From Escherichia coli (GTDB lineage: Bacteria; Pseudomonadota; Gammaproteobacteria; Enterobacterales; Enterobacteriaceae): a stretch of 64,000 nucleotides of DNA. A program made the position numbers and the translations under genes. Below the pieces are notes generated by a model. That model was not told the origin of the DNA, searched no databases, and worked only from the letters and a program-made list of their open reading frames with translations. The stretch lies in assembly GCF_003334305.1 (NCBI RefSeq), contig NZ_QOWS01000007.1. The stretch is one strand, 5' to 3'. Of the stretch, positions 63,369 through 63,994 are shown one piece after another. Each line of letters opens with the position of its first letter. The first letter of the stretch is position 1.

Positions 63369-63767
63369 TTAGCTCCAATCTTCTAGTCTGATTCCCGCCA
63401 CTCGCTCAAACTCTCGGGTATTGTTGGTAACCACAATCAAACCGCGACTGCGAGCATGTCCCGCTATCATCTGGTCAAAAGGTCCAACAGGCCTTCCCTG
63501 CCGGGCAAGCTCGGCCCTGATTTGCCCGGTATGCGTCGCAGCAGCACTATCATAATCAAGCACTTCCAAACGAGATACGAAACCTTCAATCACCGCCAAA
63601 TTGCGTTCTGGCATCTGACTTTTTTCTGCCCCATAGATAAGCTCCATCAATGTTACAGAACTTATACACATCCGGCCAGAATTCAGGTTAAACCGCTCTC
63701 TGACATGTACTGGTTTATTCTTAATAGTGAAAATACAGATATTGGTATCCAGCATGAATTTCAGCAT
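63369..63767 (-). CDS. vapC: PIN-domain toxin VapC (tRNA-fMet anticodon endonuclease type)
   Basis: 132-aa ORF MLKFMLDTNICIFTIKNKP... with conserved PIN acidic residues; closely resembles the Shigella/Salmonella VapC (MvpT) as I recall it; start overlaps the upstream antitoxin stop (ATGA). Confidence 0.9.
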   Translation of the reverse strand: MLKFMLDTNICIFTIKNKPVHVRERFNLNSGRMCISSVTLMELIYGAEKSQMPERNLAVIEGFVSRLEVLDYDSAAATHTGQIRAELARQGRPVGPFDQMIAGHARSRGLIVVTNNTREFERVAGIRLEDWS

Positions 63768-63994
63768 CAGAATGATTCCCTTTCCTGCATTGCGGGTTGA
63801 TCACGGATATCCATAAAATCCGCACTCACATTTTCGCCATCAAACCAACTGTCCCAGGACTCACCGGCGGGAGTGATGATTCTTGTACGACCAATCGCAA
63901 TAATTTCTACTTTCTTAACATCCTCTGGCAGAGCGACCGCTTTCGGTAATCTGACGGCCTGACTGCGATTACTTAAAAATACAGTAGTTTCCAT
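63767..63994 (-). CDS. vapB: VapB antitoxin (AbrB/SpoVT-type DNA-binding fold)
   Basis: 75-aa ORF METTVFLSNRSQAVRLPKAVALPEDVKKVEI directly upstream of and overlapping vapC by 1 nt; its promoter lies beyond the window end. Confidence 0.88.
   Translation of the reverse strand: METTVFLSNRSQAVRLPKAVALPEDVKKVEIIAIGRTRIITPAGESWDSWFDGENVSADFMDIRDQPAMQERESF

Follow-up and report, generated by a model that had tools for sequence, protein, structure and literature searches.

The closest described systems to the locus analysed here are the VapBC (MvpAT) toxin-antitoxin (TA) modules of the pINV plasmids of Shigella flexneri and S. sonnei, with structures that include 3TND, 6SD6 and 5ECW, and the chromosomal VapBC of Salmonella enterica LT2 (STM3033/STM3034; 6IFC, 6IFM). 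The active site of VapC is formed by D7, E42, D98 and E119 (PMC8923223; also PMC3384007). In VapB, residues S8–S11 and K18 contact DNA, and R64 and Q66 insert into the toxin's active site (PMC3384007). Salmonella VapBC cleaves tRNA(fMet), is controlled by Lon, and is autoregulated with conditional cooperativity at two inverted repeats (PMC3378870). In Salmonella and Shigella, the operator vapO1 lies over the -10 element and vapO2 over the -35 element, and VapBC octamers mediate two-operator autoregulation and conditional cooperativity (PMC3378870, PMC3384007); a single operator is enough for conditional cooperativity in Salmonella (PMC3378870). Closely related pairs are also found on IncF/IncI plasmids, as in pRHB15-C23_2, where vapBC lies between traT and traD within the conjugative transfer region, and such plasmid copies are often co-resident with the chromosomal pair described below. 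In the library that we searched, no paper on the chromosomal vapBC locus between ypfJ and purC was found.

We examined a 64,000-nucleotide stretch of an Escherichia coli contig (hereafter, the window), the final 632 bases of which are taken up by two minus-strand open reading frames (ORFs), vapB followed by vapC. We consider it very likely that these genes constitute an intact chromosomal type II TA operon of the enteric VapBC subfamily, with a toxin that would cleave tRNA(fMet), an antitoxin that would neutralise it and repress the operon, and a location on a segment that replaced a shorter one between two core genes.

Gene pair and protein families

The first-pass annotation of the window proposed a complete vapB-vapC pair, and both ORFs were found at precisely the coordinates it gave (63369–63994), with database matches far above chance:

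63767..63994, minus strand: vapB antitoxin gene, a 75-aa ORF with an AbrB/SpoVT/MazE-type N-terminal DNA-binding domain of the swapped-hairpin kind and a C-terminal toxin-binding tail
63369..63767, minus strand: vapC toxin gene, a 132-aa ORF for an endoribonuclease with a PIN domain that belongs to the tRNA(fMet)-specific enteric subfamily

The same annotation described a classic ATGA stop/start overlap, and this detail needs correction. The junction reads ...TCA TTC TGATG CTG AAA... on the coding strand, so that the vapB TGA and the vapC ATG have a single A in common and the overlap is 1 nt, not 4 nt, in agreement with the RefSeq coordinates. The pair has the layout of a type II TA operon, with the antitoxin gene first, the toxin gene next and, as translational coupling calls for, the 1-nt overlap between them, and the layout in RefSeq is the same. 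The RefSeq protein entries are WP_000450524.1 for VapB and WP_000911329.1, 'tRNA(fMet)-specific endonuclease VapC', for VapC.

Both proteins matched their Shigella and Salmonella counterparts over their full lengths. For VapC, the matches to the Shigella structures (6sd6_C, 268 bits, E = 7e-80; 3tnd_A of 3TND, E = 1.1e-79) and to Salmonella 6IFC (E = 1e-72) are accompanied by a PIN domain hit in Pfam (PF01850, E = 1.9e-21) and by a hit to the NCBIfam model NF010285 (PRK13725), which aligned over residues 1–132 of 132 and scored 291.3 bits against a cut-off of 143, about twice the curated value. VapB matched the VapB chain 6sd6_A with 137.8 bits (E = 3e-40) and 3TND_B with E = 5.5e-39; residues 6–48 correspond to the MazE/AbrB-type family PF04014 (E = 5.5e-5), and the NCBIfam model NF040493 gave 113.8 bits against a cut-off of 60. 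The LT2 system, which is likewise chromosomal and belongs to the same enteric subfamily, gave full-length scores of 245 bits for VapC and 110 bits for VapB, below those of the Shigella proteins. VapC and VapB share 92.5% and 85.5% of their amino acids, respectively, with the proteins of S. sonnei pSS_046; the corresponding values for the IncF/IncI pair are 90% and 85.5%.

The residues on which function depends in the homologues are retained. All four catalytic acids of VapC (D7, E42, D98 and E119) align at the same positions as in Shigella, so the loss of the PIN catalytic acids that might have spoken against the original annotation did not occur; its view that the toxin is close to the tRNA-cleaving VapC of Shigella and Salmonella is borne out by the ~92% identity together with this tetrad. 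VapB keeps its DNA-binding loop and the DNA-contacting residues S8-N9-R10-S11 and K18, as well as R64 and Q66, the active-site plugs, and the anchor residues W47, W50, F51, F60, M61, R64 and Q66 are conserved relative to the plasmid homologues. VapC shares Arg at position 32 with S. sonnei, whose R32 variant is associated with poorer plasmid maintenance but unaltered toxicity and tRNA(fMet) cleavage (PMC8923223). Compared with pINV VapBC, the chromosomal pair has the same protein lengths (75 + 132 aa), genes that follow one another in the same order and overlap by 1 nt, and the same D7/E42/D98/E119 tetrad and VapB R64/Q66 plugs. It differs in being a chromosomal copy with 74–75% DNA identity and saturated synonymous sites.

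The genes thus described appear to be an intact, ordinary accessory type II TA module that is probably functional. By its 92% identity to proteins with demonstrated activity, VapC is inferred to cleave tRNA(fMet); toxicity, target and neutralisation are extrapolated here from proteins 86–92% identical, because no experiment on the chromosomal allele was found in the literature searched.

Promoter, operator and predicted mechanism

As noted at first pass, the promoter is cut off by the window edge, which lies only 6 nt upstream of where vapB starts (ATG). The sequence beyond it was read from a locus of E. coli O104:H4 (L001), which is identical to the window over 63000–64000 (window coordinate = L001 coordinate + 58368). 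On the coding strand, the sequence upstream of vapB in L001 is ...CCCTTTGACAGGAAAGTAATAACAGGCCAATATGTATATACATGACGTATATCCCAAAAAAGGGGGGGCTATG. Two features are placed here:

63995..64000, minus strand: end of the vapB leader (6 nt), which belongs to a G-rich Shine-Dalgarno sequence (...AAAAAAGGGGGGGCTATG), from the window sequence
63995–64069 in window coordinates (L001 5627–5701): predicted promoter and operator region, from the identical O104:H4 locus

The predicted vapBC promoter consists of a perfect TTGACA -35 element, a 17-nt spacer and a weak -10 element, CAATAT (3 of 6 positions); it was missed by a consensus scan because of the weak -10. Directly after the -10 lies an operator-like inverted repeat, GTATATAC-N5-GTATATCC, in which 7 of 8 positions match. 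It aligns with the repeat of the IncF locus, GGATATAC-N5-GTATATCC, which is perfect on the plasmid, and with the corresponding pINV sequence. Relative to pINV, the -35 box and the -10-proximal operator motif are conserved, whereas the operator at the -35 box is degenerate in the chromosomal locus: the site that forms an operator in the plasmid and Salmonella loci has only one recognisable half-site here. Therefore, regulation of the chromosomal operon may differ from that of its homologues.

Taken together with the behaviour of the homologues, these features strongly suggest the following mechanism. VapC, an endonuclease of the PIN type that would require Mg2+, would cleave initiator tRNA(fMet) within its anticodon stem-loop and so halt translation initiation. 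The C-terminal tail of VapB would bind VapC, with R64 and Q66 entering the active site, and the AbrB-type N-terminal dimer would repress its own promoter at the inverted repeat overlapping the -10 region. Degradation of the labile VapB, which is carried out by Lon in the Salmonella homologue, would release free toxin. Neutralisation, autoregulation and Lon control, like tRNA(fMet) cleavage, are thus modelled on the homologues.

Between vapC and ypfJ, a consensus scan of the minus strand found no terminator-like site, so read-through into ypfJ-tmcA is possible; the single terminator-like hit of the scan, a weak one, lay at the stop codon of purC. An Rfam search of the whole window returned only two tRNAs, at 1–156, and nothing near vapBC.

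Two alleles at the ypfJ-purC junction

The first-pass annotation took the module to be accessory and placed purC after ypfJ in K-12, with no vapBC there. Both points hold. In K-12 MG1655, ypfJ is directly followed by purC without vapBC, and among 5,426 complete E. coli genomes the pair is carried by 1,617 (~30%; counted at a coverage of at least 80%, with identities of 98.7–100%), while 3,807 (~70%) have the K-12-type empty junction; the pair is accordingly far from being present at this site in essentially all E. coli. Since the occupied and empty states cover all but two genomes, the site is essentially biallelic. High-identity copies of the pair are chromosomal at 1,619 of 1,626 places. The gene order dapA-bamC-purC-vapB-vapC-ypfJ-tmcA was found in every neighbourhood inspected (10 places shown from 85 contigs read, and six annotated records), and an index of the public assembly collection lists this exact VapC protein in 26,658 blocks. 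The O104:H4 outbreak lineage is among the strains whose copy is 100% identical, and the alleles of E24377A and an O111:H11 strain are 98.9–99.1% identical; we take the O104:H4, E24377A and O111:H11 strains to belong to phylogroup B1.

Alignment with K-12 stops at window position 63314, 92 bp upstream of the ypfJ start, and the shared sequence restarts ~10 bp from the purC stop, placing the far end of the segment at L001 ~5771 (window ~64139). The near end is the following feature:

63315..63368, no strand assigned: non-coding left end (54 bp) of the allele-specific segment, lying between the vapC stop and the sequence upstream of ypfJ that K-12 also has

The segment therefore spans ~825 bp in the vapBC allele (L001 4947–5771; window 63315 to ~64139), versus ~66 bp in K-12. 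Just downstream of purC, the K-12 allele has the hairpin CTTGCCGTGC...GCACGGCAAG, which is unrelated to the hairpin of the vapBC allele, ATTTAGCCGGAG-N4-CTCCGGCTAAAT. Because each allele has its own segment and its own unrelated hairpin, the difference is a replacement and not a simple insertion. The comparison of this junction that was suggested at first pass, as a way to define the insertion boundaries and any flanking direct repeats, succeeded in its first part: the boundaries could be defined. Flanking direct repeats were absent, and ~66 bp had been swapped for ~825 bp in place of a clean insertion. At the segment ends, we found neither boundary-spanning direct repeats nor inverted terminal repeats, only short chance matches, and the interval from ypfJ to purC contains neither an integrase nor a transposase gene. 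The flanking repeats or target-site duplication, the recombinase and the tRNA attachment site that would mark a genomic island, transposon or integron are missing from the segment. An alignment by MAFFT placed the 66 bp of K-12 inside vapBC, but the short internal matches are alignment noise and do not represent a cassette remnant.

The empty allele, including its 66-bp filler, is 95–100% identical across the collection, and copies of the occupied allele differ by at most 1.3%. These depths, shallow for the occupied and deep for the empty allele, suggest that the occupied state is the derived one. Two genomes labelled E. coli that are separate species representatives (L003 and L004) are collinear with the locus at 92–94% overall identity; vapBC occupies the same position in them, and its boundaries are the same too. 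Synonymous divergence (dS) of the genes at our locus from these two genomes is as follows:

vapC: 0.083 from L003, 0.121 from L004
vapB: 0.090 from L003, 0.139 from L004
purC: 0.079 from L003, 0.152 from L004
ypfJ: 0.381 from L003, 0.417 from L004
bamC: 0.521 from L003, 0.353 from L004

We infer that the purC-vapBC tract was probably passed between these lineages by homologous recombination after their split; codon bias of purC could contribute to its low dS. In the history that we propose, one Escherichia lineage would have exchanged the ~66 bp that separate purC from ypfJ for the ~825-bp segment, which would then have become the present presence/absence allele (~30% versus 70%) through homologous recombination of the flanking core genes.

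The G+C content of the segment is low, 44.8% versus 53.2% for the window, its distribution is patchy and it has no known host function, all of which would suit a decaying, non-functional remnant of a mobile element that hitch-hikes beside purC. The coding sequences argue to the contrary, and we consider such a remnant highly improbable. Both ORFs are full length with complete catalytic and contact residues, and the family scores are twice the curated cut-offs. Across six alleles compared with the window (four from E. coli and two from the divergent genomes), VapB has 0–1 amino acid changes versus 3–5 synonymous ones, and VapC has 0–2 amino acid changes (E68V, M41V, L28M, V38I, E24D) versus 2–10 synonymous ones; no change in the catalytic tetrad, no frameshift and no stop was seen in them. 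A strong skew toward synonymous substitutions is seen within E. coli as well as among divergent Escherichia; in the four E. coli alleles, which are ~1% apart in DNA, VapB is identical (WP_000450524.1). The gene pair is under purifying selection.

Plasmid relatives and possible roles

Given the high protein similarity to the plasmid systems, a recent capture of a mvpAT/vapBC cassette from Shigella pINV or an IncF plasmid by the chromosome might seem plausible, and one 'plasmid' record indeed has the identical cassette. In PLSDB, 1,280 plasmids carry a vapBC homologue, all with only 60–80% DNA identity; most are conjugative IncF plasmids from E. coli and Salmonella, and Shigella pINV is also among them. 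The IncF and pINV copies are only 74–77% identical to the chromosomal pair in DNA (~77% for the IncF/IncI pair). In codon comparisons with pSS_046 and the IncF copy, synonymous sites are saturated (pS 0.75–0.88), versus pN values of 0.06–0.10. The homology with plasmids begins at the vapC stop and ends ~43 bp upstream of vapB, or ~75 bp in Pantoea plasmids, and the 63315..63368 stretch has no counterpart in the plasmid vapBC loci. The PLSDB hits with full coverage and at least 98% identity comprise two megabase-sized records (4.8 and 1.4 Mb), presumably chromosomal, and a 29-kb circle, the record with the identical cassette. We rejected the latter as a plasmid carrier, as its genes are those of the core chromosome, circularised next to an IS4-like transposase. 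Outside Escherichia, the closest VapC found among species-representative genomes (Kosakonia, Pantoea, Enterobacter and Erwinia) is 85–86% identical in amino acids and ~73–74% in DNA, and no ypfJ or purC flank homology was seen around the non-Escherichia homologues examined.

A recent plasmid capture is thus refuted at the sensitivity of these searches, and we find it barely credible. The comparisons point instead to a relative that parted from the plasmid mvpAT/vapBC systems long ago and has been under strong constraint, in a chromosomal position that appears specific to Escherichia.

An addiction or persistence role of the chromosomal pair, as put forward at first pass, would have to be carried over from the homologues. 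Plasmid addiction proper entails carriage on a replicon whose loss is punished; this copy is chromosomal, and its position rules out a plasmid-maintenance role. It is possible, if rather unlikely, that the pair has an anti-addiction role, with chromosomal VapB neutralising the VapC of incoming IncF- or pINV-type plasmids and thereby sparing the host post-segregational killing. In its favour, homologous vapBC is found on ~770 plasmid records of the genome set and on the 1,280 PLSDB plasmids, and ~270–350 genomes, such as that of strain 537-20, have both types. The 86–92% identity of the proteins and the conserved VapB anchor residues are consistent with cross-neutralisation, but 7 of the 30 residues of the toxin-binding tail differ from pINV VapB. 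Not every close homologue is an active toxin: the VapC of the pAA plasmid of O104:H4 was reported to be non-toxic owing to an Asn in its active site (PMC11950199), which the chromosomal vapC does not have. The allele of our window is present on O104:H4 chromosomes, a point that the paper leaves aside. An inactive plasmid toxin in an allele-bearing host is what relaxed selection would be expected to produce, though this is a single anecdote.

Co-occurrence counts are neutral in this respect. In a sensitive search, some form of vapBC turned up in 2,051 genomes, and 777 records had copies of 60–80% identity, located on plasmids at 770 places. Taking 1,620 of the 2,051 genomes as holding the chromosomal allele leaves 431 with the plasmid type only. 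With 431 plasmid-only genomes versus ~270–350 with both, chromosome-positive genomes show no depletion of plasmid-type copies but some enrichment (~17–21% versus 11%), a rough estimate without phylogenetic correction that speaks neither for nor against anti-addiction. The anti-addiction reading concerns the role of the pair and is compatible with the TA mechanism described above.

Type II TA systems have generally been linked to phage resistance in reviews, and an accessory, patchily distributed locus would suit a defence gene. The pair could accordingly act in abortive infection, in which the shut-off of host transcription by a phage would deplete VapB and VapC would arrest translation before the phage cycle ends. 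We regard this as improbable: neither protein matches any of the 5,027 PADLOC models (PADLOC-DB 2.0), the flanks are core metabolism genes without neighbouring defence genes, and no report of such a function for enteric VapBC was found in the literature searched.

The intact TA operon that we favour is of an already known kind, because the type of element, its mechanism and its RefSeq annotation are all established. As a common accessory TA locus named by RefSeq in >1,600 complete E. coli genomes, it has little importance beyond its correct annotation. The locus does provide a marker within the core genome that is clean and close to biallelic, with its junction ~30% occupied and ~70% empty, and would exemplify a small TA cassette without mobility genes of its own that spreads via homologous recombination of its flanks. 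Since many strains have both the chromosomal pair and a 90%-identical plasmid copy, chromosomal vapBC should be weighed in work on plasmid stability or VapC toxicity in B1-type hosts such as O104:H4. Cross-talk with plasmid vapBC is the sole further reading of mild interest, and we put it forward tentatively, with the odds against it. If the anti-addiction hypothesis is true, the allele at ypfJ-purC would alter which virulence and resistance plasmids can enforce their own maintenance in ~30% of E. coli, and selection on plasmid toxins would be relaxed, as in the inactive pAA VapC of O104:H4.

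Plasmid and chromosomal vapBC

The putative promoter of the chromosomal vapBC module was read from L001, an O104:H4 chromosomal locus that matches the window exactly over 63000-64000.

Window-equivalent 63995-64069 (L001 5627-5701), past the window end: putative vapBC promoter/operator region

Compared with plasmid vapBC promoters, the chromosomal version keeps the putative operator over the -10 box, as an inverted repeat matching at 7/8 positions. Of the operator that overlaps the -35 box, one half-site is lost. The VapC encoded by the pAA virulence plasmid of EAEC O104:H4 is reported to be non-toxic owing to an active-site Asn (PMC11950199). 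L001 carries an intact chromosomal vapBC in the same lineage, of which that study makes no mention.

The vapC-tmcA neighbourhood

Two genes downstream of vapC, on the same strand, lies tmcA; window 60329-63767 spans both. The tmcA product acetylates elongator tRNA(Met) at C34. A gene for elongator tRNA(Met) modification is found near one for a predicted initiator tRNA(fMet) nuclease; this closeness is probably a coincidence. A search for a terminator-like site between vapC and ypfJ found none, and transcription from the vapBC promoter may read through into ypfJ-tmcA.

Other differences from K-12 in the window

The left end of the window contains the following features.

1-76: tRNA-Val(UAC)
81-156: tRNA-Lys(UUU)
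276-617, + strand: ORF of 113 aa

After the two tRNA genes, the xapR-xapB-xapA-yfeN block of K-12 (~4.4 kb) is missing, and ~400 bp (203-606) stands in its place. The ORF in this segment encodes a Gln/Lys/Glu-rich, coiled-coil-looking product. Also gone is yfeS (~12381-12385; ~960 bp in K-12). Between eutB and eutA (~32094-32116) the window lacks CPZ-55, a cryptic prophage of K-12, so the eut operon is unbroken.

Occurrence of the vapBC allele in other records

NZ_CP019906.1 (L101) is a circular record of 29 kb, submitted as a plasmid, that is made up of the core chromosomal genes tmcA-ypfJ-vapCB-purC-bamC-dapA-gcvR-bcp adjoining an IS4-like transposase. It represents either a circle excised through the action of an IS or an artefact of assembly. 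In NZ_CP026085.1 (H13, a match among 5,426 complete E. coli genomes), a RefSeq chromosome of 4.83 Mb that bears the label 'DH5alpha', the vapBC allele is present at 100% identity although K-12 MG1655 lacks it; the strain label looks doubtful.

vapBC also occupies the same ypfJ-purC junction in two divergent 'E. coli' genomes, L003 (NZ_JAATUR010000003.1) and L004 (CP089930.1), whose whole loci are 92-94% identical to the region. Against L003 and L004, dS of purC-vapBC is 0.08-0.15, 3-5 times below the 0.35-0.52 of ypfJ and bamC. This much lower dS suggests that the purC-vapBC tract has been exchanged among Escherichia lineages via homologous recombination.
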